Positions 42,207-57,588 of a DNA stretch of 64,000 nucleotides are shown in pieces (positions within the stretch are counted from its first letter, which is position 1; the number at the start of each line of letters is the position of its first letter). The stretch spans positions 38,993 through 102,992 of the forward strand of contig JAWCLZ010000002.1 in assembly GCA_038850275.1 (NCBI GenBank), in the 5' to 3' direction. The notes under the pieces are model-generated. The model did not search any database. It was not told the DNA's origin and saw only the letters and a list, made by a program, of their open reading frames with translations. The position numbers were made by a program, and so were the translations under genes. Source of the stretch: Methanocellales archaeon (GTDB lineage Archaea > Halobacteriota > JAWCLZ01).

Positions 42207-42746
42207 ATGGCTTGGGCAATTTGGATAACTGGTTTACCTAGTTGTGGGAAAACTACTATTGCAATTAAAACTAGAGAGATGCTTGAAAAAAACGGTGTAA
42301 AGGTGAAAATTCTTCAGCTTGATGAAATTAGAAGGGTTATAACTCCCAAGCCAAGGTATACAGAGGAGGAAAGGGATATAGTTTATGCTTCACTTGCATA
42401 TATGGCTAAGCTATTAACAGAATCAGGTGTGAATGTGATCATCGATGCCACTGCGCATAAGCAGAGATATAGAGATCTCGCAAGACAACTCATCCCCAGC
42501 TTTTTAGAGATCTATGTTAAATGCCCACTTGAGATCTGCATTGAGAGGGAGAGGACAAGATTCGCGGAGTATTCACCTCGAGATATATATAAAAAAGCTC
42601 GATTGCCAAGTGCAACTGTGCCAGGAGTAAACGTGGTTTATGAAGAGCCAGAGAATGCGGAGGTAACAATTGATTCAAGCAAACTCAGCCCTGAGGAGGC
42701 TGCGGATAGAATTATTAATGCAATTTTAGAGAAAGGATGGATTTGA
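42207..42746 (+). CDS. Adenylylsulfate (APS) kinase-like P-loop kinase
   Basis: 179 aa; ITGLPSCGKTT Walker A, LDEIRR and DATAHKQRYRD align with CysC GLSGSGKST / LDGDNVR / SFISPYRADR. Confidence 0.6.
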   Translation: MAWAIWITGLPSCGKTTIAIKTREMLEKNGVKVKILQLDEIRRVITPKPRYTEEERDIVYASLAYMAKLLTESGVNVIIDATAHKQRYRDLARQLIPSFLEIYVKCPLEICIERERTRFAEYSPRDIYKKARLPSATVPGVNVVYEEPENAEVTIDSSKLSPEEAADRIINAILEKGWI

Positions 42747-43564
42747 AGATGAATATTGAAAAATCAATCATAGAGATAGCGCAAGAAGTTCGAGATCGAG
42801 TTAGAGATTATGTCAAAGTGGATAAAACTTTTGGAGAGGAAATTGCCCGCCGAGGCAGCGATGTTACTAGGAAAATGGATTTATATGCAGAGAAAGCATT
42901 AGATGAGGCCTTAATGGCTCGTGATATACGGGCAAGGATAATCTCCGAGGAACTTGGGGAGAGAATAGTACCGCAGGATAAAAAGCCAGAGTGTACCTTG
43001 GTTTTTGACCCAGTGGATGGCTCAACCAATGCATTACTTGGCATTCCATATTACTGTGTCTCCCTAGCCTATTCCCCAAAGGTCAAAGATGTTTCATTTC
43101 ACGACATAGAGATAGGCGTAGTATGCGATGCTAGTGGCAAAACATATAGCGCGGTCAAGGGCAAAGGAGCAGCTTTAAATGGAAATAAGTTGTTCCCGAA
43201 GAAGTATCAAAAGCACAAGTTAGTGATGGCAATTTATACATATGGTGCAAGTAAAATACCAATGGGAGTAATCGAGCTTGAGAAAAAAGTCATCGTGCGC
43301 ATCTTCGGTGCAATTGCACTTGACCTCTGCTTGCTAGCTGAGGGCAAGCTGGATGCTGTGATTGAATCGAGGAATTTAATTAGCGCCCACGATGTACTAG
43401 CAGCTTGGCTCATTTTAAAAGAAGTAGGGGGGAGGATAACGGATTTGAATGGGAACGAGCTTGATTTAGAGGTGACTGCGAGGGGTTTCTCTTTAATTGC
43501 AACAATTGATGAAGCAACGCGGAGTGAGATATTTGAAAAGCTCAAGCTCAAGGGATTTGTTTAG
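42737..43564 (+). CDS. Inositol-monophosphatase/FBPase/CysQ family phosphatase
   Basis: 275 aa; DPVDGSTNA and the WDxAAG-equivalent (AHDVLAAWLI) IMPase-family motifs; overlaps the APS-kinase-like gene. Confidence 0.75.
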   Translation: MDLKMNIEKSIIEIAQEVRDRVRDYVKVDKTFGEEIARRGSDVTRKMDLYAEKALDEALMARDIRARIISEELGERIVPQDKKPECTLVFDPVDGSTNALLGIPYYCVSLAYSPKVKDVSFHDIEIGVVCDASGKTYSAVKGKGAALNGNKLFPKKYQKHKLVMAIYTYGASKIPMGVIELEKKVIVRIFGAIALDLCLLAEGKLDAVIESRNLISAHDVLAAWLILKEVGGRITDLNGNELDLEVTARGFSLIATIDEATRSEIFEKLKLKGFV

Positions 43565-45271: not shown

Positions 45272-46087
45272 TTATTGATAGGTTTTAACAACCATCACTT
45301 GACAAGGTGATTCCGCGACTACTTTATCTGCAACTGCATCTAGCAAAGCAGCATAGTTTCTATCTCTCTCAGTTGAACCAAGCATTATCAAGTTATATTT
45401 CCCCTCCCTAGCTTCTCTCAAGATCTCCTCGCTTGGCGAGCCAAATAAAACCTTTGCTTGACTTGGTACATTCAATCTCTCAAAGTGAATCTTAGCTCTA
45501 TTAATTATATTCTCAGCACTTGAGCCTCCCTCCCTCAAATTCGCTACATATAAGACAGTTGCTCTCCCTCCGTGTTTTTTAGCTAAATTAGCAGCTATTT
45601 CAGCTGCTTTCTCCGCGTGTTTATATCCAGAGGTTGGCACTAGAATTTGATTGCAATCCAAGCTTACATATTTGCGATAGCTCACCACTGCAACATCACA
45701 AGTGGCATAGCGAAGCACTTCATCCACGATATTTCCAAACAACACACCCTCAGGTTCTAAGCGCTGGCTCGAGCCCATTAAAATTAAATCGCAGCGGTCA
45801 ATCCTCGCTTCCTTAACTATTACTTCTGGGATCGATCTTGCTATGACGATTTTTGGTCTAGCTGCAATACCATTTTCAATTGCAACCGCTGCTGCTTCCT
45901 TCACTAAGTTGCGCGCTCTATCTAGTTTTTCCTCAGCTAGAGTTAATGGATGAGGCTGAGGCACAGCTATGACGTGTAATATTGTTAATCGAGCATTTGA
46001 AGTTAATAGATCCAAGGCTAATCTCACTAGTTCTCTCGCGGTGAGAACATTGCTCACTGGAATGAGGATATTTTTATACATATCCAA
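45272..46087 (-). CDS. Tandem universal stress protein (two UspA domains)
   Basis: 271 aa; two repeats each with ILVPTSG/ATCDVAVV-type Usp motifs. Confidence 0.75.
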   Translation of the reverse strand: MDMYKNILIPVSNVLTARELVRLALDLLTSNARLTILHVIAVPQPHPLTLAEEKLDRARNLVKEAAAVAIENGIAARPKIVIARSIPEVIVKEARIDRCDLILMGSSQRLEPEGVLFGNIVDEVLRYATCDVAVVSYRKYVSLDCNQILVPTSGYKHAEKAAEIAANLAKKHGGRATVLYVANLREGGSSAENIINRAKIHFERLNVPSQAKVLFGSPSEEILREAREGKYNLIMLGSTERDRNYAALLDAVADKVVAESPCQVMVVKTYQ

Positions 46088-46198: not shown

Positions 46199-46855
46199 TT
46201 AAGCGCCAAATCTTCGGTTTCTACGTTGGAAATCTCTAATTGCTCTTAGAAAATCTATTTTTCTAAAGTCCCTCCAGCTGATATCTGTGAAGTAAAGCTC
46301 TGAGTAAACTGCTTGCCAAATTAAAAAATCAATCAAGCGCTTGCTATCTGCCCTTATTATTAAATCTGGCTCTATCTTGAAGGTTAAATGGGCCTCGATT
46401 AATTTCTCATCTATATCTTCAACTTCTATCTCCCCCGCTTTGACCTTCTTCATTATCTCTCTAATAGCATTTGTTAATTCATATTTACCTCCATATCCAA
46501 TTACTATTGTGAGCTGAGGCTGACCAGTTTTAATCTCTTGCTGCTTACCCTTGGTAAATATCGCTATGCCTATTTTAGCCATTGAGAATACTTTAGATGC
46601 AGTACTCAAAAGACTTTCCTCAACTTTTTTATTAAGATCCCCTACTTCAACAATGCTAATGTAAACAGTAATATTTTGAATTCCAATTTCACTGCACCAT
46701 TCAACAAATGCTTTAAGGCGCTTCCAAGCATTTTCCTCCATCAAGTTATCCTCAGATATAACTAAAATAATATGCTTGGGGACTCTGCCTTTTTTAACCT
46801 GCTCTAGGATTCTCCTCTCATATATCGCGGTAGCTATTTCTTTCACTATCCTCAA
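46199..46855 (-). CDS. cis-Prenyltransferase (UppS) family protein with degenerate catalytic motifs; candidate non-catalytic Nus1/NgBR-like subunit of a heteromeric cis-prenyltransferase
   Basis: 218 aa. The C-terminal half aligns with E. coli UppS (TIVIGYGGK; DLIIRADSKRLIDFLIWQAVYSELYFTDISWRDF; terminal RFG as in the R-x-G motif). The N-terminal DGNGRWA and FSSENW motifs are replaced (ISEDNLMEENAW; ISIVEV). Confidence 0.6.
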   Translation of the reverse strand: MRIVKEIATAIYERRILEQVKKGRVPKHIILVISEDNLMEENAWKRLKAFVEWCSEIGIQNITVYISIVEVGDLNKKVEESLLSTASKVFSMAKIGIAIFTKGKQQEIKTGQPQLTIVIGYGGKYELTNAIREIMKKVKAGEIEVEDIDEKLIEAHLTFKIEPDLIIRADSKRLIDFLIWQAVYSELYFTDISWRDFRKIDFLRAIRDFQRRNRRFGA

Positions 46856-46890
46856 CTCTACAGAAAGTTTATTGACTTTTAAGGATTTAA

Positions 46891-48204
46891 ATGATTAGCG
46901 TGCGCGAGGAAGTTAAAAAGCAACTTTCTTATATATCACTTGGCTTTTCAGCACTCGCGATTCCCTTTCTTGAACCTTGGCAGATTATATTCGCAATTGC
47001 TATCATTACCATCTTAATCATATACATTCCACCTAGAACTAGGTTTTTCACAGCAATAGCTCGAGAGATAGATTTAAAAGCGGGTTTTTTAATCAATGCA
47101 ACGCGTTATAGCCTCTCATTTCTCATCCTAGCGATTCTTGTTTTGATAAACTTCCCCTTGTATTTACTTAGTGCTACAATTGCAATCGTTGCATTTGGAG
47201 ATGGATTAGCTACCGTAGCTGGCTTGGTAGGAGATTTAAAGCAGGAGAAAACTCTTAGAGGTAGCCTTACCTTTTTAATCTTAGGAAGCATAGCTGCATA
47301 TCTATCTTGCTCTTGGTATATACATTGGAGAGCTACTCAAGTATCTCTTGAATCCATATTCTTCTTAGCTGTAGTAGGAAGCGCAGTTGGAGCTTTGATA
47401 GAAGCTGTTTCCACTCAAACTAACCAAGGTTTAACAGTTCCAATTGGTAGCGCTATGGCAATGTGGTTTTTTTCAACCTTGAATTACTCAGTCTCCCCTA
47501 TTTATTTGCTACTTGCGCTATCATTAACGCTTTCAATTGGCATTGCATCTTATAAATCAAATATAGCTGATTTAAGCGGCGTGTTAAGCGGCACGCTTTT
47601 GGGCATGCTGATAATCATATTCACCGATCTACGTTGGTTTCTAGTTCTCCTAGCTTTTTTAATCCTTGGGTCTGGGTTCACCAAGTATAAATATGCCTAC
47701 AAGCTCTCCATAGGCGTGGCTCAGAGCAAGGGAGGTGCTAGGGGGGCGAGTAATGTCTTTGGCAATGGATTATCTGCCTTGTTTTTTGCAATTGCATATG
47801 GTGTTTATAAACAGGAGTTATTCCTATATGCCTTTTTAGGGGCAATATCAACTGCCACTGGTGATACACTAGCGAGTGAAATTGGAGGAACAAGTAAAAA
47901 ACTCCCTGTTTTAATTACTAATTTAAAGCCAGTGCCCCATGGTACAAGTGGGGGGATAACCCTACTTGGCGAGCTTGCTTGCGCACTTGGAGCTGCTTCG
48001 ATTGGGATGTTAGCTATAGCCTTGGCAATGGGTAGTGATTTAGAGCTATTGATATTCACTTTAATAAGTGGAATAGCCGGTGCTAATATAGATAGCTTGC
48101 TTGGAGCCACTCTTGAGAAAAAATATCTCTCGAACTCGATGACAAATCTAGCTGCCACTTTCTTTGGAGGATTAACCTCAGCTACCTTCTTCCTCCTCCT
48201 TTGA
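46891..48204 (+). CDS. Polytopic membrane protein (>=10 TM); C-terminal half DUF92/COG1836-like
   Basis: 437 aa; very hydrophobic; SKGGARGASNVFGNG region resembles DUF92; starts 35 nt from the cis-PT-like gene in divergent orientation. Confidence 0.4.
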   Translation: MISVREEVKKQLSYISLGFSALAIPFLEPWQIIFAIAIITILIIYIPPRTRFFTAIAREIDLKAGFLINATRYSLSFLILAILVLINFPLYLLSATIAIVAFGDGLATVAGLVGDLKQEKTLRGSLTFLILGSIAAYLSCSWYIHWRATQVSLESIFFLAVVGSAVGALIEAVSTQTNQGLTVPIGSAMAMWFFSTLNYSVSPIYLLLALSLTLSIGIASYKSNIADLSGVLSGTLLGMLIIIFTDLRWFLVLLAFLILGSGFTKYKYAYKLSIGVAQSKGGARGASNVFGNGLSALFFAIAYGVYKQELFLYAFLGAISTATGDTLASEIGGTSKKLPVLITNLKPVPHGTSGGITLLGELACALGAASIGMLAIALAMGSDLELLIFTLISGIAGANIDSLLGATLEKKYLSNSMTNLAATFFGGLTSATFFLLL

Positions 48205-49765
48205 GGATATAAACTAGAGCTAAAATTGCAATTACTGCAATTGCAACCTCGAATCCAGGTGCTACTCTACGAGTGGGTGTTGGTTGGGGAGGCGTGGGAG
48301 TTTGAGTTGGCAAGCTAGTTGGAGTTGGGGTTACCTCATCGAGATTTGTGATCGCAATTGTACTTGATTTTGCTATAGCGCGATAGTTTTTAATATCCAT
48401 ATAGGTTGAGGTTGCTTGAGGTAGAGTAAAAGAACGATTAGTTATGATCTCGATCTCATATTTCAATGAAGCACTTTCACCTGCCTTTAAAACCAAGGTG
48501 TTTGAAACTAAACTACCATTAATTAACTTAGTGCTTTCCAAGGGTATTTCATCTGAGATGTTAACAGCACAGGTTCTATCCCCTGAGTTCATAGCGGTAA
48601 TCGTTATGTTAATTCTACTCCCATTTTTAACAACTGTATTATCAGCTGTCTTCGTCAGCTCAATATATGGCCCGTGGACGATTAATTTGGGCTCCTCAGA
48701 TTCGATTGAGTAATTAACTCCATTGTAAGTAAAATTGGCAGTTGCCTTTGGAAGAGTATAAGTACCTGGTTTTAATGGTATCATCACATAAAATGGAATT
48801 AATCTCTCTTTCTCAACCCCTGGTTCAAGTACATCGATCTTCATATTAGTCTGACCGCTTTTGAGTTTGAATTCACTTAAAAGGGAATCGTTTATTACCA
48901 CGTCGTAGACTGGGAAGCTTCCATGGTTGCGTATAACCACAGTTACCCCTGAGGTTTCATCCATATATATACCTGTTTCAGTTGGAGTTGGAGTTAAATA
49001 TCCCACGCTACCGGAAACCAATTTTATTATTTCAATCATGGATTCTATCTCTATTGCCTTTGAACCACTCCAAGTATAGGATATATTCTTTGCATCATAG
49101 CCAGTGGCAGTTACATTTATGTAGAGCGTGGTTTTATTAAGCAGTGATGGAGCATTTAATGTTAAGAGTATATCTGGTACTTGCTCACCTCTTTTTATCT
49201 CACTATAGCTCTTAGTTGTCTCCCCCATTATCACTTGCATACCACTAGTATCGATGTTCAATTTAACATCCCCAGCTCTCGCTCCTTTATATGAACCTGG
49301 AGAATCGCTCCCAGTGTTTTTGACCTTCACTGTTACTTGAATATATCTATTTGCTTTATAGCTATTTGCATCAGTGGTTACCTCTATGGAGAGCTCAGGT
49401 AATCCTCTTAAGGTAACATATAGATCGACATAGGCTTTATTAGGGGGCTCGATATATACATTGGAAACATCTATCCAGATTTCATCTTCTCCATTGTAAT
49501 TCCAATGATTGCTTGGATAAACATTCATAATTCTCTGGTCGAGGTAAACCCCATCTTTATAGAGCTTTAGCTTAACACTTTTAATATCACCACTTACAGT
49601 GAAATCCGCGGCTTCAATTGTATAATTTCTAAAATTAGCTTTATCCCCCCAGTAAAGCTTTGCAGATTGCTGAGATTCCATCTCAATTGGAGCTGAGTAG
49701 CTTTTGCAGATATATGGAAGGGTAAATGCAAATAAAGCAAGGAATAACGCTATTCTCCAGTTCAT
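48182..49765 (-). CDS. Secreted surface glycoprotein with PGF-CTERM archaeosortase sorting signal
   Basis: 527 aa; N-terminal signal peptide; >=12 N-x-S/T sequons; TPTPT...PTPPQPTPT linker; C-terminal VAPGFEVAIAVIAILALVYIL + GGGRR (PGF motif, TM helix, basic tail). Confidence 0.7.
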   Translation of the reverse strand: MNWRIALFLALFAFTLPYICKSYSAPIEMESQQSAKLYWGDKANFRNYTIEAADFTVSGDIKSVKLKLYKDGVYLDQRIMNVYPSNHWNYNGEDEIWIDVSNVYIEPPNKAYVDLYVTLRGLPELSIEVTTDANSYKANRYIQVTVKVKNTGSDSPGSYKGARAGDVKLNIDTSGMQVIMGETTKSYSEIKRGEQVPDILLTLNAPSLLNKTTLYINVTATGYDAKNISYTWSGSKAIEIESMIEIIKLVSGSVGYLTPTPTETGIYMDETSGVTVVIRNHGSFPVYDVVINDSLLSEFKLKSGQTNMKIDVLEPGVEKERLIPFYVMIPLKPGTYTLPKATANFTYNGVNYSIESEEPKLIVHGPYIELTKTADNTVVKNGSRINITITAMNSGDRTCAVNISDEIPLESTKLINGSLVSNTLVLKAGESASLKYEIEIITNRSFTLPQATSTYMDIKNYRAIAKSSTIAITNLDEVTPTPTSLPTQTPTPPQPTPTRRVAPGFEVAIAVIAILALVYILKGGGRR

Positions 49766-50457: not shown

Positions 50458-51597
50458 ATGATTGCAGATGCAAAAGCTCAGTTGAGCATGGACTTCCTAG
50501 GTGGATTTGTAATACTCTTCTTCAGTTTAGTAACAGTTTTAATATTTCTACCAACTTTATTCAGCACTCTTCAAAACCCAAGCATAGATCTCCACCCAGT
50601 GGCATATAGAACAAGTGTATTACTCGCAGAAGACCCAGGTTGGTGGAGCAATATCACAGTTGGCGAGCAAGGCTACAACTGGGAAGATCACTTGAACTAT
50701 ACTAGTAGAATTGGCCTTGCAAGCGTTAAATATGGAAAGGGAGATGCATGTATATTGGATAGAAATAAAACTCTAGCGCTTCTCACTCTATATAATAAAT
50801 CGGATTCCACAAGCTATGGAAAAATTCAAGATCTCTTGGGCTTGAAAAGCTCAACGCGAAAATACGACTACAATATAACATTCAAAATCCTGCCATCGGG
50901 AGCGATATGGAAAATTAAGCGGAATGAAAGCGGAGTATATAAAGAATATAATATGACATTTGGCAGAGAAATACCAAACTCTGGCAATGTGGAGAAAGTG
51001 GTGCGCATATTAAGAATTTATAAAGGATTTTACCCTGAATACATGCCATACATAGTCCCAGGTATAAACCCAGAGGAGAGGTGGTATCCAAACTGGCCAG
51101 ATGGATATTATCCCTTTGATGATATAAATGACGATGACAAAGGACAGTTTGACCACCCGCTCTTACTGAGCTATCCACTGGGGTATTTCAAGATATATAA
51201 TTTCGGCAGAGAGCCAAGTGCTACAGCTGTAGACGATCTCGACCTATATGTAACAACTGATCTCACTCAAACTGAAAATCGTTTATTGCACGCGAATCCC
51301 AACCTCGTGGTTTCTTGGAACAACAACACCGGCTGGAGCGGGCCATATTGGAATGGCACTGATTGGAGCATAGACCCAGGTACTGGTTTGAAGTCACGCA
51401 ATTTCGAAGAAGAAATCAATAGCAAACTTGAAGACCTAAATGCTAGCGATGGACAGCTATTTTTGCTTTCAATTAAATATCACAATGCACAAGGAGATGT
51501 CTCTGCACCCAATGCAGTGACTTGGCTTGAAGATCCTTGGCTGCCAACGGGAGAAGACATTCGTGGATTATTCAAACTGGAGGTATGCATATGGTAA
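50458..51597 (+). CDS. Class-III-signal (type IV pilin-like) secreted protein, gene A of the pilin/adhesin operon
   Basis: 379 aa; N-terminus MIADAKAQLSMDFLGGFVILFFSLVTVLIF fits the archaeal prepilin Q-x-S-x-[ED]-F-L + hydrophobic helix pattern; many N-glycosylation sequons; W/Y/D-rich ectodomain. Confidence 0.5.
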   Translation: MIADAKAQLSMDFLGGFVILFFSLVTVLIFLPTLFSTLQNPSIDLHPVAYRTSVLLAEDPGWWSNITVGEQGYNWEDHLNYTSRIGLASVKYGKGDACILDRNKTLALLTLYNKSDSTSYGKIQDLLGLKSSTRKYDYNITFKILPSGAIWKIKRNESGVYKEYNMTFGREIPNSGNVEKVVRILRIYKGFYPEYMPYIVPGINPEERWYPNWPDGYYPFDDINDDDKGQFDHPLLLSYPLGYFKIYNFGREPSATAVDDLDLYVTTDLTQTENRLLHANPNLVVSWNNNTGWSGPYWNGTDWSIDPGTGLKSRNFEEEINSKLEDLNASDGQLFLLSIKYHNAQGDVSAPNAVTWLEDPWLPTGEDIRGLFKLEVCIW

Positions 51598-52187
51598 AAA
51601 GCGAAGCACAGGTTTTCACCCTCGAGGGCTTGGGCGCGGCTGTGATAATAATGCTTGCATTATACTTCATGCTTCAATCCCCAGTTATCTTCACCCCTCC
51701 AACTGCGCAGCATTTAAATGTTCAACTTTCCCAACTCGGTAGAGATGCACTTCTAGCGCTTGATATAGAAGTGCCTAGCAATAGTACTCTTGCTAATTAT
51801 ACTTTGAAGAGCTATTTAAAAGCAATTAATAAAAGCGACCTTAAGATTCCAACTCAAATGAGAAAAGACCTATGCTCTCTTCTCCCGAGGAATGTGATGT
51901 TTAACGTGGTTTTAAGCTATGTTAATTTAAGCGGGGTAAACATAAGCGAGGGGAATTATACCATGCTAAATATCACCACTCTTATCTTAAATTCTGATAA
52001 TACTACTGAATTCATAACCAATCTCACGCCTCCTCAGGATTCCACAACTGCTAGCCATTTAGTAGTGCTCTACGATAGCGAGCTTAGCGAGGACTCGCCA
52101 TTCAAAGTAAATGCAACTGAAATGGGAACTGAGCCTGAGAGAATACCCCACGTTATAGAGGTGAGACTTGAGCTATGGTATGTTTAA
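51585..52187 (+). CDS. Class-III-signal pilin-like protein, gene B
   Basis: Start MHMVKSEAQVFTLEGLGAAVIIMLALYFML; ~11 sequons in ~200 aa; overlaps gene A by 13 nt. Confidence 0.5.
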   Translation: MHMVKSEAQVFTLEGLGAAVIIMLALYFMLQSPVIFTPPTAQHLNVQLSQLGRDALLALDIEVPSNSTLANYTLKSYLKAINKSDLKIPTQMRKDLCSLLPRNVMFNVVLSYVNLSGVNISEGNYTMLNITTLILNSDNTTEFITNLTPPQDSTTASHLVVLYDSELSEDSPFKVNATEMGTEPERIPHVIEVRLELWYV

Positions 52188-52600
52188 GAAATGAAGAAGG
52201 GCAGATCATAATATTATTTGGATTTTTAATAGCAGCTAGCTTAATCGTATTAGCTGTGCTTTTAAATACTGTGCTATTCTCAGGCCAGCAGGCAGTCGTT
52301 GGGGAGTTTACCTTCCCTAAATATGAGATACAGGATATAAGGCTTCAAACTCTAGAGCAAGCTAAAATTGCGGCAAATCGCTCGGAGTTTAAAAATGAAA
52401 CTATATTTAATGAGATAATTGAGCTATATAGTAAGCAAATCCTAGCATTATATAGCGAGAGGGGTGCTTATGCTTTAGTCACAATTAAGCCTGTGAAGAG
52501 TGGAGAGAATATAACTTGGGCTCAAGTCAAGGTAATCTACAACGATATGTATACTGATTACAAAAGTGTGGATGTGATCTATGATTTAAAGGGGGAATAA
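52175..52600 (+). CDS. Class-III-signal pilin-like protein, gene C
   Basis: 141 aa; RNEEGQIIILFGFLIAASLIVLAVLL (KGQ-type prepilin cleavage context + hydrophobic helix); overlaps gene B by 13 nt. Confidence 0.5.
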   Translation: MVCLRNEEGQIIILFGFLIAASLIVLAVLLNTVLFSGQQAVVGEFTFPKYEIQDIRLQTLEQAKIAANRSEFKNETIFNEIIELYSKQILALYSERGAYALVTIKPVKSGENITWAQVKVIYNDMYTDYKSVDVIYDLKGE

Positions 52601-52607
52601 TTGGAAT

Positions 52608-55600
52608 ATGAATAAAATGAAGAAGAATATGAATAGTAATACTAAGTGGAATAAATTTGTTAATAATACTCAAGCGGTAACTCCAACCTATGAATATATA
52701 ATACTCATTGGAATTTTAATCGTCTATATCACTCTCTTCCTCACTATTTACGCTGATGAATTTGGAATAGCACCTTTGAGAATCGCAATGCAAACGCAGT
52801 TCGAGGATATTGGCAATGATATTAGCTCAAAAGTCGTGGATATGTATATAATTGCACCTGAATCAGGCTATTTAAAAACCAAATTCTACATGCCTCAAGC
52901 AGTTGGTAAATATGAATATAAAGTTGAATTCAAAGAAATAGGACTTGACCAGCAAATTTTGGTTTCAGCGCTGAGGTTTGAGAAAGAAGTAATGATCACT
53001 TTAAATAAAATAGGCTCAAGCTTAGGACTAACTGGCTCTACTTATAGTTCCACTCCTGAGCACTGGCTTATCTATAGCATGAGCTCGCAATATGATCTAA
53101 CTCCAATTGCAGTTGCATATCCAAGGGAAGTCTCTTATAACCTCACTTCTGGGTGGAGTGATATAGTTGTTTTCGATGGAAGTGATTCAAAAGGTATAGG
53201 CGAGCTTCAATATAAATGGGACTTCAATGGCGATGGAATTGTAGACGCGACTAATGCAACTGAATATTATCAATACTCAGCTCCAGGTGTTTACAATGCA
53301 ACTTTAACAATCTATGATCCAATTTTAGATAGAGAAGCTTCAACAACTGTTCAAGTAAATGTTACCACTAGTTATATCGAGCCATCCATAGATGCCTATA
53401 AATATGTATCTCCAAGGAGCTTTGGAGTGGGTAAACCAAGTTATACAACTATAGTGCTCTATGGCAAGGGAATACCTCAAAATGAATCCCATATTGATGT
53501 AATGCAAGTGATAGATGTCTCAGGAAGTATGGATCCAGATTGGCTAAAGATAGCTGGCGGTGATCCAGAAACAGGCTACACTCCATTCTCAAATAAGAGT
53601 ATAAAGGGAACCGCTGGAAGCAAGATCTGGACTGAGAGCTTTAGTTTAACAAGCGCTGCTAATGAAACAATTGAAAAACTTCACGTTGAACTCTGGAATG
53701 TAAGCGGGAGTAATAATGTTGATCTCTACGTCAAGCCCCCAGGTGGAATTGCTGAGAGAGCGCAGACTATAACTCCTTGGTATGAGCGCTATGAAAAAGC
53801 AAATCCACCCTTAGGTAGCTATACCATCTACGTACTTGGAGACTTCCCAGTTGGGAGCCAGTCGTTTAAAGTGAATGTAAACAAGACCTCAAAGATTAGT
53901 ATAAGTGGAGCTGTGGATACCTACACTTGGAGCAATACCACTTATAATTTGAACGTGGCTAAGTGGATGGAGACATATATAACTTGGCCCACTAGCTCAG
54001 TCGATCTAAATCTATATTTAACCGACCCGAGCTCAGCAACTTATGCTCCAACTTCAGCAAATCTCTCTTCGCCCTCTCGCAATTGGGAGCGAATTTATCT
54101 CACTAATATAAAAGCTGGGGACTGGACAGTTGCAGTTTACAACAATGGGTCTTACCCCACTTATAATGTTACAATTCAAGCTTGGTGCATCGAAGAAAAC
54201 AAGGATCCCAAAGTGGATATAACCATGGATGGCTCTTCAACTGGTAAAAAAACCCCACATACCTTCACAGGTTTAACAGGCACTCATACCTTCACTGTGC
54301 CCAGCAGCGATTCAAAAGGACATCAATTTTGGAAGTGGAATGAAACTGGCTCTACAAGTAGAACGATAAGTGTGAGTTCAAGTGGAACTTATACCGCTGT
54401 ATATCGCCAGCCTCCACCTACCCCTACACCAACACCAACTTTCACAATTTCAAATCCAGGAGAGCAGACTGTGTATCGAGGCAGCTCGAAATCAATAAGT
54501 ATAACGGTAACAAGTTATTATGGCTATAACAAAGAGGTTAGTTTAAACGCTAGCGGAATGCCAAGTGGCACTACAATTACCTTCACTCCCGATAAAAAAA
54601 CGCCCACATTTAGCTCTACAATGACTATAAATGTGAGCGCGAGTACGCCAACTGGAAATTATCCAATAACAATCATTGGCACTGGGAGCGATGGATTAGT
54701 TAAAACTCAAACATTCACATTATATATACCTGATTTCTCAATAAGTGCTTCTCCCTCTTCGGGGAGTGTTAAAACCACGGGCGGGAGCACCAATTATACC
54801 ATTACCTTAACCTCGCTATATAAATTCGCAGGCAGCATCTCGCTCTCAATCTCAGGATTGCCAGCAGGTGCTAGTGCCACATTCAGCCCTAATCCAGTTA
54901 GCCTATCAGCTGGGCAAACTAAGACCTCAACCCTCACTGTTTCAGTGCCCCCTGGAACTCCAGTTGGAGATTATACCTTAACCATAACTGGCATAAGTGG
55001 AAGCCTCAGCCATTCAACAAGCGTAACTCTTAAAGTCATAATACCCCCACCTGGCTTGCTCTACTGGCTAGCTAGACTATATGAAATCTCACTCCCAAGT
55101 CCATGGATCAGCGCTAGAGCTGCTCCAGGTGTAGAGAGCTTCACTGGATATATACGCCTTGGCGAAACTCCAGTAACAAACTTTAGCGGCAATATAACTG
55201 CAAGCGAGCCGCCTAGGTGGGATAATACTGAGAGTCCAATCTTGATTAATGAATCCATTGAGAACTTCAAGATAAGTTTGAATTACTACGATGAATATGG
55301 GAATGAAAGTTTGCACTTCTGGGTAAGTAAAAATGGCGCTCCTCCAGTGCTAGTAGCTGGATTAATGGGTGAGTACTATGACAACATGGATTTAACCAAT
55401 TTGAAATTAACTAGACTAGACCCAGTGGTAGACTTCAACTGGGGCTCAGGCTCACCACATTCTTCAATTGAAGCTGATACCTTCTCAGTTAGATGGACTG
55501 GCTATGTTAAAGTGGATAGGTCTGAGACTTATACATTTTATGTAGTTACAGACGATGGAAGTAGGGTATGGGTTGATGATACGCTTATCATCGATTCTTG

Positions 55601-56792
55601 GATTAATCAATCAACGACTGAGCGCAGTGGAAGTATTTATCTCGCTGAGGGCTGGCATAAGATAAAATATGAATATTATGAGAACACTGGAAGTGCAACT
55701 GCTAGATTGCTATATTCCTCTCCAAGCACGCCTAAACAAGTTATACCGCAGGATCACCTGAGCCCAGTTAATATGAAGGGCAATGTATGCATAAATTATA
55801 CTGAGACAAATGTAATTGCACCTGCTACTTACACTATTTATATAACTGGAACTTTCCTCAGCGGTACAAAGGATTTTGAACTGCAAACCTATATGGCTAA
55901 ACTAGATGCAGCTAGGATAAGTGGTAAAACCTTTGAGGATATGTTGAATAGCTCTTCAGATAAATCTGGATTAGTTTCATTTGGTGGCAATGCAACTATT
56001 ATTAACCAATCAGATGTGAGGTTGATTCAAAGTCTAACTTATAGCCATAGCCTTGTTAAAGCTGGCTTCGATTTATTAGAGGCGCATAATGGCACGCCAG
56101 TGGGTGAAGCCATCTATGTTGCAGTTCAAGAGCTAAATAATTCCTCGGAGTTCTTCACTGAGAATGATCGCACTCGAGTGCCTGTGATAATCTTGCTCTC
56201 AGATGGACTGCCAACCCTCCCAGCAACCCTTGAGGAGATCTCTGAAAATAATTATACTCGAGCTATTCAATATGCCCTTGAGCAGGCTAATATTGCGAAG
56301 AGCATGGGTATTTTGATCTATGCAATTGGATTTGGAGTTGATGCTGACATGAATTTCCTCGCTAACATCTCAAGTGGCGAGGGCTTTTACTTCTTCGCTG
56401 CTACTAAAGAAGAGCTTCAAGCGATTTATCTGCAAATAGTTAAGGAACTTAGGGAATATGCTGGTAGAAATGTAGTGATCACTGATGTAGTGCCAGCTGG
56501 TATAAATGTAGTAAGCGCACCAGGAGCGAGTGAGATAATTAATAATGATGATGGAACTACAACTATTATCTGGAGAGTAGGTGGAGTTAAAATTTATAGA
56601 CATGGTCAAACACCACTGGTGAGGAGATTGGTGATATCAACTATGAGCACTGGTTCCACTAATGCCAATGTATATGGTCTCTCCAATGTTACTTATACCA
56701 ATGTTATCACAGGTGATCTAACCACTTTTGTATTTCCTGAGACGAATATCTACGTTAAACCAGTTGGCAGTGGACAGATGAGTATGGAGTGA
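52608..56792 (+). CDS. Giant (1394 aa) surface adhesin with pilin-like N-terminal TM segment, MIDAS motif, PPC-like beta-sandwich repeats, TP-linker, PA14 domain and vWA domain
   Basis: N-terminus ...TQAVTPTYEYIILIGILIVYITLFL is pilin-like. DVSGSMD is a MIDAS D-x-S-x-S motif at aa ~302. VDLYV / VDLNLYLT are PPC-type motifs. PPPTPTPTPT is a linker. The PA14 domain (aa ~917-1040) contains GEYYDNMDL...FSVRWTGYVK...YTFYVVTDDGSRVWVDD...GWHKIKYEYYE. The vWA C-terminal half (aa ~1100-1290) contains GNATI...NGTPVGEAI...ILLSDGLPT...ILIYAIGFG. Confidence 0.7.
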   Translation: MNKMKKNMNSNTKWNKFVNNTQAVTPTYEYIILIGILIVYITLFLTIYADEFGIAPLRIAMQTQFEDIGNDISSKVVDMYIIAPESGYLKTKFYMPQAVGKYEYKVEFKEIGLDQQILVSALRFEKEVMITLNKIGSSLGLTGSTYSSTPEHWLIYSMSSQYDLTPIAVAYPREVSYNLTSGWSDIVVFDGSDSKGIGELQYKWDFNGDGIVDATNATEYYQYSAPGVYNATLTIYDPILDREASTTVQVNVTTSYIEPSIDAYKYVSPRSFGVGKPSYTTIVLYGKGIPQNESHIDVMQVIDVSGSMDPDWLKIAGGDPETGYTPFSNKSIKGTAGSKIWTESFSLTSAANETIEKLHVELWNVSGSNNVDLYVKPPGGIAERAQTITPWYERYEKANPPLGSYTIYVLGDFPVGSQSFKVNVNKTSKISISGAVDTYTWSNTTYNLNVAKWMETYITWPTSSVDLNLYLTDPSSATYAPTSANLSSPSRNWERIYLTNIKAGDWTVAVYNNGSYPTYNVTIQAWCIEENKDPKVDITMDGSSTGKKTPHTFTGLTGTHTFTVPSSDSKGHQFWKWNETGSTSRTISVSSSGTYTAVYRQPPPTPTPTPTFTISNPGEQTVYRGSSKSISITVTSYYGYNKEVSLNASGMPSGTTITFTPDKKTPTFSSTMTINVSASTPTGNYPITIIGTGSDGLVKTQTFTLYIPDFSISASPSSGSVKTTGGSTNYTITLTSLYKFAGSISLSISGLPAGASATFSPNPVSLSAGQTKTSTLTVSVPPGTPVGDYTLTITGISGSLSHSTSVTLKVIIPPPGLLYWLARLYEISLPSPWISARAAPGVESFTGYIRLGETPVTNFSGNITASEPPRWDNTESPILINESIENFKISLNYYDEYGNESLHFWVSKNGAPPVLVAGLMGEYYDNMDLTNLKLTRLDPVVDFNWGSGSPHSSIEADTFSVRWTGYVKVDRSETYTFYVVTDDGSRVWVDDTLIIDSWINQSTTERSGSIYLAEGWHKIKYEYYENTGSATARLLYSSPSTPKQVIPQDHLSPVNMKGNVCINYTETNVIAPATYTIYITGTFLSGTKDFELQTYMAKLDAARISGKTFEDMLNSSSDKSGLVSFGGNATIINQSDVRLIQSLTYSHSLVKAGFDLLEAHNGTPVGEAIYVAVQELNNSSEFFTENDRTRVPVIILLSDGLPTLPATLEEISENNYTRAIQYALEQANIAKSMGILIYAIGFGVDADMNFLANISSGEGFYFFAATKEELQAIYLQIVKELREYAGRNVVITDVVPAGINVVSAPGASEIINNDDGTTTIIWRVGGVKIYRHGQTPLVRRLVISTMSTGSTNANVYGLSNVTYTNVITGDLTTFVFPETNIYVKPVGSGQMSME

Positions 56793-56796
56793 TGAG

Positions 56797-57588
56797 ATGC
56801 TAAACTCAAGAGAAGCAGTATCAGAAGTAGTTGGATATATGTTGATCTTCACCATAGTGGTGCTCTCCATAGGATTGATGTATGTCTATGGCTATCCCAT
56901 TTTAGAGGACCTTCAAAATAGAATTCGCTTTCAAAACGCTGAGCAGGGATTTGCAACTCTACAGGCTGATTTAGATAGAGTGGTATTTGACCAAGCACCT
57001 ATTAAGACCACGAGGATAAACACAGGTGGGGGATCCATTCAAGCTGCTTCCTCAGGGGATAGAATTAACATAGTGGTTAACATTAGCGGGGAGAAGAAAT
57101 ATGAAGTTACAAGGGAACTTGGAATCGTGGAATATCGCCACTTGGGGAAGAGAATTGCCTATATAGATGGCGGGGTATTCATAAAAGAGGGCGAGCGCTC
57201 TTATCTTCGAATTCCACCTAAGATCTATGTTTACAATGACACTGAGACCTCTAATCTAACAGTTATAATCTCAATTTTCTCGATATACTGCAAATATCCC
57301 ACGATGGGTGGGGGCGAGAGGGTATCAGTGTTGAGTAAATTTAATAGGTCGAGCACGAGTGCTTATATCAATCAAAGCTTTAACTCTAGCTTGAGCAATG
57401 TAACCATAGTTATAAATAGTAGTTTATACGCTGATGCTTGGGAAATGCACTTTAGCAATCTCAAAGAGCGGGCATACGTTGGGATAGAGGTCACGAGGTT
57501 GAATTCCACTCACGTGAGAGCAGTAATTCCATTCAATAGAGTGGTCATCGCTGAGAATAAAGCTGATGTAGAGGTATTCTCTAGTTAA
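56797..57588 (+). CDS. Type IV pilin-like protein (DUF1628-like N-terminal domain), gene E
   Basis: 263 aa; MLNSREAVSEVVGYMLIFTIVVLSIGLMYV closely resembles the haloarchaeal/euryarchaeal pilin consensus R-A-V-S-E-V-I-G-V + hydrophobic helix; starts 5 nt after the adhesin stop. Confidence 0.55.
   Translation: MLNSREAVSEVVGYMLIFTIVVLSIGLMYVYGYPILEDLQNRIRFQNAEQGFATLQADLDRVVFDQAPIKTTRINTGGGSIQAASSGDRINIVVNISGEKKYEVTRELGIVEYRHLGKRIAYIDGGVFIKEGERSYLRIPPKIYVYNDTETSNLTVIISIFSIYCKYPTMGGGERVSVLSKFNRSSTSAYINQSFNSSLSNVTIVINSSLYADAWEMHFSNLKERAYVGIEVTRLNSTHVRAVIPFNRVVIAENKADVEVFSS

Follow-up and report, generated by a model that had tools for sequence, protein, structure and literature searches.

What does an archaeon do with a cis-prenyltransferase (cis-PT) homolog that has lost catalytic motifs of its family, and what ties it to the large membrane protein encoded back to back with it? 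This question is raised by a 64,000-nucleotide stretch of a Methanocellales archaeon genome (GenBank assembly GCA_038850275.1, contig JAWCLZ010000002.1, positions 38,993 to 102,992), which we call the window and whose first nucleotide is position 1 of all coordinates given below. Our analyses indicate that the shorter product, of 218 amino acids (aa), is very probably, to judge from its sequence, an NgBR/Nus1-like non-catalytic accessory subunit of a heteromeric cis-PT, and that the longer one, of 437 aa, joins a DUF92 domain to a degenerate dolichol/phytol-kinase-like domain. The accessory class of cis-PT is already known; what appears to be new is its conserved linkage to a fusion with a degenerate DOLK-like half. 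A full-text literature search returned no account of the accessory cis-PT/DUF92 linkage or of the DUF92 fusion, and the linkage appears to be undescribed so far.

The cis-PT homolog occupies positions 46199..46855 on the minus strand (TTG start; open reading frame (ORF) list and Pfam PF01255) and the two-domain polytopic membrane protein positions 46891..48204 on the plus strand (ATG start; ORF list). Between them, as read from the sequence, lies an AT-rich divergent spacer of 35 bp (46856..46890). This is the arrangement given by a first-pass annotation made from the letters alone. The NCBI annotation of the short ORF starts at an alternative GTG at 46846, 3 codons downstream of the TTG, which yields a protein of 215 aa (P0001) and a spacer of 44 bp. 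P0001 ([quoted passage not shown]) is 100% identical to the 218-aa protein, as is P0121 (“DUF92 domain-containing protein [Methanocellales archaeon]”) to the 437-aa protein, both entries being from a metagenome-assembled genome and a contig of 126 kb.

The short protein belongs to the cis-PT fold family, matching Pfam Prenyltransf (PF01255) with E=2.4e-33 and 116 bits against a cut-off of 27, the best-matching stretch being its C-terminal half (aa 109-217). Among PDB sequences, bacterial UPPS match this same half with E-values of 1e-22 to 1e-27; the match to human NUS1/NgBR is weak (E ~6e-4) but spans aa 24-217. The C-terminal motifs listed at first pass are in place, namely GYGGK (120-124), FLIWQ (177-181), ELYFTD (186-191) and RFG (215-217), except that the supposed “RxxxR” is actually R168-x4-R173. 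The motifs reported as missing, DGNGRWA and FSSENW, are indeed absent. To map individual residues, we used a MAFFT alignment with E. coli UPPS (= PDB 1JP3), seven short orthologs and two long paralogs. The P-loop HVAIIMDGNGRWA is replaced by the degenerate HIILVISEDNL at aa 28-38 (46742..46774, minus strand; seen also in the NgBR alignment): D26 of the E. coli enzyme falls on S34 or E35, an ambiguity of one residue in the alignment, R30 becomes Leu or Met, the GNGRWA motif is gone, and a 12-residue deletion after the P-loop removes the R39-H43 loop. The motif of the isopentenyl diphosphate (IPP) site is equally degenerate, with ITVYISIVEVGD at aa 62-73 (46637..46672, minus strand) standing for LTLYAFSSENWNR and with S71, N74, W75 and R77 changed to I68, V71, G72 and L74, and about 22 residues of helix α3 are missing. 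In catalytic cis-PTs the P-loop Asp and Arg (D26 and R30; the Asp is D34 in DHDDS) bind Mg2+ and the allylic diphosphate, and S71 and N74 are the IPP-site Ser and the general-base Asn (N82 in DHDDS). Kept are the equivalents of R194 (R168), R200 (R173) and E213 (E186), the FLxWQ motif and the terminal R215-F216-G217 (R-x-G; 46205..46213, minus strand; family alignment), after which only one residue and the stop follow. The two arginines are spaced differently, as R168-x4-R173 here versus R194-x5-R200 in E. coli. This pattern of loss and retention is shared by all eight aligned short-family members and recurs in a 20-member alignment, in which the C-terminal R-x-G is invariant (20/20; alignment positions R214-x-F216-G217).

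The first-pass annotation had taken such a combination for the hallmark of a non-catalytic partner subunit, and the alignment with UppS, DHDDS and NgBR agrees: catalytic positions are lost, the R-x-G is kept and the P-loop is NgBR-like. The stretch VPKHIILVISEDNLMEENAWKRLKAFVEWCSEIGIQNITVY aligns with human NgBR through a common hydrophobic-(S/T)-E in place of the P-loop and a short connection to the “WC” helix, whereas DHDDS, unlike NgBR, needs 11 inserted residues to be aligned over it; by itself this N-terminal alignment to NgBR is weak (E ~0.3) and leans on the significant full-length NUS1 match. The NgBR/DHDDS structure paper describes NgBR as a protein with a distorted site that “lacks most catalytic residues” and whose RXG tail binds the β-phosphate of IPP in the DHDDS active site, and Mg2+ via water. 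NgBR/Nus1 (PDB 6Z1N, 6W2L) thus resembles the window protein in having “(S/T)E” at the P-loop, a deletion ahead of the “WC” helix, no general-base Asn and a C-terminal RXG. By contrast, the window protein begins directly with the cis-PT domain and lacks the N-terminal region that spans or binds the membrane in eukaryotic members, its C-terminal half is far nearer to bacterial UPPS (~1e-22 to 1e-27) than to NgBR (~6e-4), and it retains the R194/R200/E213 equivalents.

Do archaea have such subunits? This half of the story is not new, because the archaeal accessory class has been experimentally established in three organisms: Methanosarcina mazei, with the catalytic MM_1083 and the accessory MM_0618 making C45-50 products (PMC13586052, PMC8131916), a heteromer correctly pointed to at first pass; M. 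acetivorans, with the biochemically characterised pair MA3723/MA4402; and Archaeoglobus fulgidus, in which Af1219 and its accessory Af0707 have likewise been characterised biochemically. The archaeal heteromeric proteins have no transmembrane domain, the Methanosarcina subunit included, and a euryarchaeal origin has been proposed for the eukaryotic DHDDS/NgBR system (PMC12998183). The short family of ~215 aa contains a Methanosarcina sp. member (L041) with 36% identity to the 218-aa protein (E=1e-51), and through this shared family we infer from sequence that the latter is orthologous to MM_0618. Like the MM_0618, M. acetivorans and Af0707 accessory subunits, it is soluble, has no transmembrane anchor and consists of a cis-PT domain without catalytic residues ending in RXG; a DHDDS-type partner also adjoins the short-family gene in many relatives. 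The difference is that the window, which carries the Methanocellales ortholog, holds no partner gene adjacent to it or within 64 kb. As a candidate ortholog, M. mazei MM_0014 was ruled out, its match being only E=0.001.

Where, then, would the catalytic partner be? Since no second cis-PT is detectable in the 64-kb window, we presume that it is distal and encoded elsewhere in the genome. The search for a canonical catalytic subunit proposed at first pass thus found nothing in the window, but it was answered in relatives, where DHDDS-type paralogs adjoin the short gene. The loci of two relatives hold a second Prenyltransf gene of 306-312 aa, which in one Methanocellales genome (L005) is the next gene downstream of the short one, in convergent orientation, and in Methanosarcinales Met12 (L004) lies ~2 kb from it. 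Both long paralogs have intact IIQDGNRRYA and STENF motifs and no C-terminal RXG, and their best PDB match is human DHDDS (7e-49). A scan limited to one genome per species then gave 80 loci, which we classed with local hidden Markov models (HMMs); 65 were of the degenerate short type, from Methanoperedens, Methanocella, Argoarchaeum, Methanothrix, Syntrophoarchaeum, ANME-1, Methanohalophilus, Methanosarcina, haloarchaea and Methanomicrobiales. A DHDDS-type paralog lies within 6 kb in 23 of the 48 short-type loci that have at least 4 kb of downstream flank, mostly convergent and often only 7-100 bp away.

Could the short protein nevertheless work alone? It might be a small, self-sufficient homodimeric cis-PT in which E35/D36 bind Mg2+, making short or irregular products like the versatile M. 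mazei MM_0014. Several points do pull in that direction and away from an accessory role: a conserved Glu, E35, with D36 and N37 adjacent, stands at or beside the D26 position, within the one-residue ambiguity of the alignment; the protein passes the TIGR00055 uppS equivalog of NCBIfam, at 111.2 against a cut-off of 109.55; the R194/R200/E213 equivalents and the RXG are kept; some orthologs are named “polyprenyl diphosphate synthase” in databases; and a second cis-PT is missing from the window. We nonetheless regard this alternative as very improbable. None of R30, H43, S71, N74 and R77 remains, the α3 tunnel helix is shortened, and E35 coincides with the Glu of the non-catalytic “VITE” of NgBR, because the P-loop replacement and the short connection to the WC helix coincide in the NgBR alignment. 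The TIGR00055 pass is misleading, because its score arises entirely from the C-terminal half (aa 113-217). MM_0014 itself matches only at E=0.001, the short family co-occurs with, and often adjoins, a DHDDS-type paralog devoid of RXG, that is, with the complementary defect, and the Methanosarcina and Archaeoglobus enzymes are reported as heteromers of catalytic and accessory subunits.

Homologs of the short protein (P0011, P0012 and P0023) share its pass of the uppS cut-off, and the names given to orthologs in public records include “polyprenyl diphosphate synthase” and [quoted passage not shown]. It looks as if accessory subunits were systematically mis-annotated as synthase enzymes, a matter of practical importance, since non-catalytic proteins that exceed the equivalog threshold get annotated as synthases.

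What is the membrane protein on the other side of the spacer? Its C-terminal half (aa 210-429; 47518..48177, plus strand) is a DUF92/TIGR00297/COG1836 (VTE6-like) domain, as the first-pass annotation had suspected. DUF92 (PF01940) matches aa 212-417 with E=5.4e-59 and 200 bits against a cut-off of 27.5, and TIGR00297 scores 205.2 bits, marginally under its cut-off of 205.85; like that of Prenyltransf in the short protein, the DUF92 E-value is much too low for a chance match. An AlphaFold2 model of the whole protein has 17 helices (mean predicted local distance difference test, pLDDT, 88; predicted template modelling score, pTM, 0.86), and the pTM suggests that the two domains are packed in a fixed arrangement. 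Across the family of fused proteins, the DUF92 half is clearly the more constrained: it has 70 positions conserved at 90% or above versus 24 in the N-terminal domain, 27 of them polar or charged (K271, R284, N288, N292, D325, E330, E361 and D401 included) versus 2, and a mean pairwise identity of 57.5% versus 40.9%; in 98% of sequence pairs it is the N-terminal domain that is less conserved. In plants, VTE5 and VTE6 are sequential, CTP-preferring, membrane-bound kinases, the first for phytol and the second for phytyl phosphate (PMC9782597). Like VTE6 of plants and cyanobacteria, to whose family human TMEM19 also belongs, the window protein has a full-length DUF92 domain, far above the Pfam threshold. 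Unlike VTE6, it is fused to an extra N-terminal domain of ~205 aa, and its gene belongs to a non-photosynthetic archaeon and is linked to a cis-prenyltransferase instead of tocopherol or chlorophyll genes; its activity is a prediction only.

The N-terminal half (aa 1-205; 46891..47505, plus strand), recognised with phmmer and hhalign, is a degenerate dolichol/phytol-kinase-like domain of the COG0170/CTP_transf_1 superfamily. Pfam and NCBIfam scans of this half itself returned no matches, and CTP_transf_1, which the first-pass annotation had listed for an HMM search beside DUF92, is reached only by its standalone homologs. These came from a phmmer (HMMER) search with aa 1-202 against 1.84 billion representatives, which found 144 proteins at E<=1e-3, many of them standalone and of 190-250 aa, labelled at source, where named, “COG0170”, “dolichol kinase” or “phosphatidate cytidylyltransferase”. 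They share the consensus “LAFGDGxATxxGxxxG...K(S/T)xEGS...VESxP...DDNxxVP”, and G103, D104, G124, E171, D179 and N180 are at least 90% conserved in the standalone family. PF01148 (CTP_transf_1) is matched by seven of 49 standalone members, with P0251 above threshold (26.8 bits vs 24). The CTP-binding motif of DOLK is DXXAXXXGXXXGX8KKTXEG (PMC13586052), and standalone P0257 (GDGFATLVGKKWG-x8-NKTVEGS) matches it almost exactly. When 24 motif-bearing standalone proteins, none with DUF92, were compared by hhalign with the N-domain profile of 64 fused proteins, the two aligned at 99.9% (E=8e-36, 198 columns), from which we conclude that the N-terminal half and the dolichol/phytol-kinase family are homologous. 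Searching PDB sequences with a profile of the N-domain family brought up a chance match only.

Homology does not make this half a kinase. The CTP-binding motif of the window protein (aa 104-124; 47200..47262, plus strand; compared with the DOLK motif) is eroded and reads D104-G-L-A-T-V-A-G111-L-V-G114-x5-K120-T-L-R123-G124, with a shortened loop and Arg for the motif Glu; E171 is kept, and the DDN has become N178-Q179-G180, its Q179 and G180 each being unique among the 64 fused proteins. Within this set D104 is retained in 28/64, E171 in 46/64, D179 in 38/64 and N180 in 44/64; the full DOLK motif occurs in 0/64 and DxxAxxxG alone in only 6/64. The likeness to DOLK/Sec59 and VTE5/FOLK (COG0170, PF01148 superfamily) thus lies with the standalone prokaryotic homologs, which carry a near-canonical DXXAXXXGXXXGX8(K)K(T/S)XEG and DDN, whereas the window domain, with its shortened motif (GxxG, x5), its Glu to Arg change and N-Q-G for DDN, is almost without conserved polar residues. 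Because the motif is incomplete in the whole fused family, the N-terminal half is better filed as a degenerate relative than as a kinase, and we think it probably inactive as a catalyst. DxxAxxxG stretches occur in both halves, “GDGLATVAG” at 47200-47226 (aa 104-112) and the invariant “GDTLASEIG” at 47863-47889 (aa 325-333). An internal duplication of the two halves was rejected, with hhalign giving <2% despite these collinear stretches; DUF92 and the CTP-transferase/kinase superfamily may be related, though very distantly.

Is the pairing of the two genes more than a local accident? Several groups have a fused DUF92 gene of 400-480 aa directly upstream of, and divergent from, the short cis-PT gene: Methanoperedens (L001, L008-L010, L016, L018), Methanocellales (the window, L005, L014 and the cultured Methanocella conradii, L006), Methanothrix (eight loci), Argoarchaeum and other Methanosarcinales, and the haloarchaea Haloarcula, Haloquadratum, Halobaculum and Halobellus. 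The flanking genes otherwise vary among these loci. The pair is present at ~32 of the 59 accessory-type loci that offer 1.5 kb or more of upstream sequence (30 scored automatically, plus L038 and L046, where long spurious ORFs masked the arrangement), and a DUF92 gene was found near none of the 20 loci with a canonical full-motif cis-PT (Fisher's exact p=7e-6, uncorrected for phylogeny). The functional link between the genes that the first-pass annotation had proposed gains support from this divergent synteny, conserved in several orders, and we consider it fairly likely. Methanolobus has the fused gene without a cis-PT neighbour.

Some loci show variants of the arrangement. In L017 (4621-6046) the N-domain and the DUF92 domain are encoded by separate, overlapping ORFs, the result of a gene split or of a frameshift, and in L021 (5222-5983) a DUF92-only gene of ~254 aa, with no N-domain, stands divergent beside the accessory cis-PT. 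Because L021 pairs a DUF92-only gene with the accessory cis-PT, it suggests that the DUF92 half is the part relevant for the linkage. In several haloarchaea (L037-L043 and L046; Haloarcula, Haloquadratum, Halobaculum and relatives) the three genes stand together, with the fused DUF92 gene divergent upstream of the accessory cis-PT and a convergent DHDDS-type cis-PT 7-100 bp downstream of it (about 1 kb in L046). The set is therefore either older than the split of methanogens and haloarchaea or has been transferred as one unit. In Methanocella conradii (L006, 4263-5318), the next gene downstream of the accessory cis-PT, on the same strand, encodes an LPG_synthase_TM (PF03706) membrane protein, a candidate for another lipid-handling neighbour. 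In Methanoperedens nitroreducens (L001, 9532-12645), contractile-injection-type genes (Pvc16_N, phage sheath, T4 gp19-like tube and AAA ATPase) follow a few kb downstream of the pair.

How might two such proteins work together? The explanation that we favour, and hold to be reasonably probable, is a carrier-lipid supply module made of a heteromeric cis-PT and a polyprenyl-(phosphate) kinase. The 218-aa protein, with its cis-PT fold and no working active site, would dimerise with a DHDDS-type paralog encoded elsewhere, and its R215-F-G217 tail would enter the active site of the partner and bind the diphosphate of IPP and Mg2+. The heteromer would make a C50-C60 polyprenyl diphosphate, the precursor of the glycosyl carrier lipid. 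The DUF92 half would phosphorylate polyprenyl or dolichyl (mono)phosphate, or the alcohol, at the expense of a nucleoside triphosphate, probably CTP, and so keep the carrier lipid or its allylic primer phosphorylated and usable, while the N-terminal half, as a decayed dolichol/phytol-kinase-like domain, would serve mainly as its structural or lipid-binding partner. By its position, the 35-bp spacer is a putative site of back-to-back archaeal promoters that would couple the expression of the two genes; a sigma-70 promoter and terminator scan stayed at background level, the sigma-70 model being inapplicable to archaea.

For the kinase activity of the DUF92 half taken separately, which we propose by analogy with VTE6, we would give a little less than an even chance, and several observations weigh against it or against the module as a whole. 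The only DUF92 protein reported as characterised, plant VTE6, uses C20 phytyl phosphate and not C55 carriers (PMC9782597). The pair is absent, among the scanned loci, in ANME-1, Syntrophoarchaeum, Methanosarcinaceae and Methanomicrobiales. Foldseek searches against PDB gave no significant match for the full-length model, whose top-probability hit was TmCdsA (0.41), and nothing significant for the N-domain alone, whose TRIC and rhodopsin hits are helical-bundle noise. The clade of the window keeps part of the CTP motif, and its N-domain may retain residual activity. We know of no archaeal DUF92 protein that has been characterised.

The main uncertainty concerns the substrate of the membrane protein, either a C50-60 carrier or a C20 primer or salvage compound. 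With the latter, the membrane protein would be a salvage enzyme whose DUF92 half converts geranylgeranyl or phytyl phosphate to the diphosphate, as VTE6 does, providing geranylgeranyl diphosphate (GGPP) for lipids and as cis-PT primer, and whose N-terminal half is the remnant of a geranylgeraniol kinase. This we judge unlikely, though it has attractions: the C20 substrate of VTE6; the geranylgeraniol kinase and geranylgeranyl phosphate (GGP) kinase activities of Sulfolobus, to which no genes are assigned according to a review (PMC9782597); a fusion of VTE5-like and VTE6-like domains that parallels the two-step salvage pathway; and the “GGDP specific” names of some archaeal cis-PTs, which would supply a reason for the linkage. 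However, the linkage is specifically to a cis-PT accessory gene and not to GGPP synthase or lipid-synthesis genes, and the domain of the first step is decayed. GGPP made de novo is abundant in archaea. The GGP kinase activity of Sulfolobus is, moreover, cytosolic and not membrane-bound (PMC9782597).

The fused protein may also not be a kinase at all, being instead a phosphatase, a flippase or scramblase, a cytidylyltransferase, or a protein unrelated to carrier lipids whose pairing with the cis-PT is an inert shared bidirectional promoter. Besides the two structure searches without a significant match, in which the top hit of the full model is a cytidylyltransferase (TmCdsA), this would fit single standalone homologs that weakly match CarS or CdsA models and the absence of the pair from several lineages. 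Yet the pair has been kept in at least three orders although the flanking genes differ, a DUF92 gene accompanies 0/20 canonical cis-PT loci, the DUF92 half has many invariant charged residues, as enzymes do, and the families of both domains contain characterised polyprenol or polyprenyl-phosphate kinases, all of which makes such alternatives quite improbable.

A bolder extension of the carrier-lipid supply module can be imagined, in which the fused protein is the archaeal dolichol/polyprenyl-phosphate kinase and forms, with the accessory and catalytic cis-PTs, an ancestral three-gene set of Halobacteriota, both enzymes consisting of an active domain and a decayed, paralog-like partner that is structural or presents the substrate. 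We regard this version as doubtful, although it would be of some consequence. To our knowledge, no archaeal gene for a dolichol or polyprenyl-phosphate kinase has been characterised. In eukaryotes, DOLK is the CTP-dependent terminal enzyme of dolichyl phosphate synthesis (PMC13586052), and a 2026 review of polyisoprenoids discusses dolichol kinase for eukaryotes only (PMC13586052). The archaeal route from the cis-PT product to the dolichyl phosphate used in N-glycosylation is poorly defined, and the DUF92 fusion offers a specific, testable candidate, because the linkage of accessory gene and fusion spans orders and the pair or a fused ortholog occurs in groups with genetically tractable species (haloarchaea, Methanosarcina). 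Were the fused protein a carrier-lipid kinase, it would provide the first biochemical handle on non-plant DUF92/TMEM19 members. The accessory subunit also bears on the origin of DHDDS/NgBR, as the P-loop replacement and loop deletion of NgBR are already found in it. Beyond the first-pass annotation, the present analysis adds the degenerate dolichol/phytol-kinase-like nature of the N-terminal half, the placing of the catalytic partner outside the window and the prior establishment of the accessory class in archaea.

The wider setting of the pair is archaeal in character, with a window G+C content of ~40% and archaeal-type neighbours such as a PGF-CTERM surface protein and a DUF5788 protein; no glycosylation or lipid genes were found among the neighbours in the window. 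Directly downstream of the accessory cis-PT, in the slot taken by the catalytic paralog in many relatives, lies a gene for a tandem universal stress protein with two Usp domains (45272-46087, minus strand; 271 aa). On the other side, a gene for a predicted surface protein of 527 aa (48182-49765, minus strand) converges on the DUF92 gene and shares 23 bp with its 3' end. The protein has DUF11/CARDB/TRAP_beta-like domains, 12 N-x-S/T sequons and weak matches to S-layer and PGF-CTERM. It might be a client of N-glycosylation; this adjacency is not seen at other loci. Further along, DUF7287, DUF7288 and DUF7289 proteins are encoded around a 1394-aa protein with PKD, NPCBM_assoc, PA14 and VWA domains (50458-57588, plus strand), in what looks like an archaeal pilin-like or adhesin operon. 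At 42207-43564 on the plus strand, a gene resembling adenosine 5'-phosphosulfate (APS) kinase (179 aa) overlaps an inositol-monophosphatase/CysQ-like gene (275 aa), and the two may form a pair handling 3'-phosphoadenosine 5'-phosphosulfate and 3'-phosphoadenosine 5'-phosphate (PAPS/PAP) in this methanogen-related archaeon.

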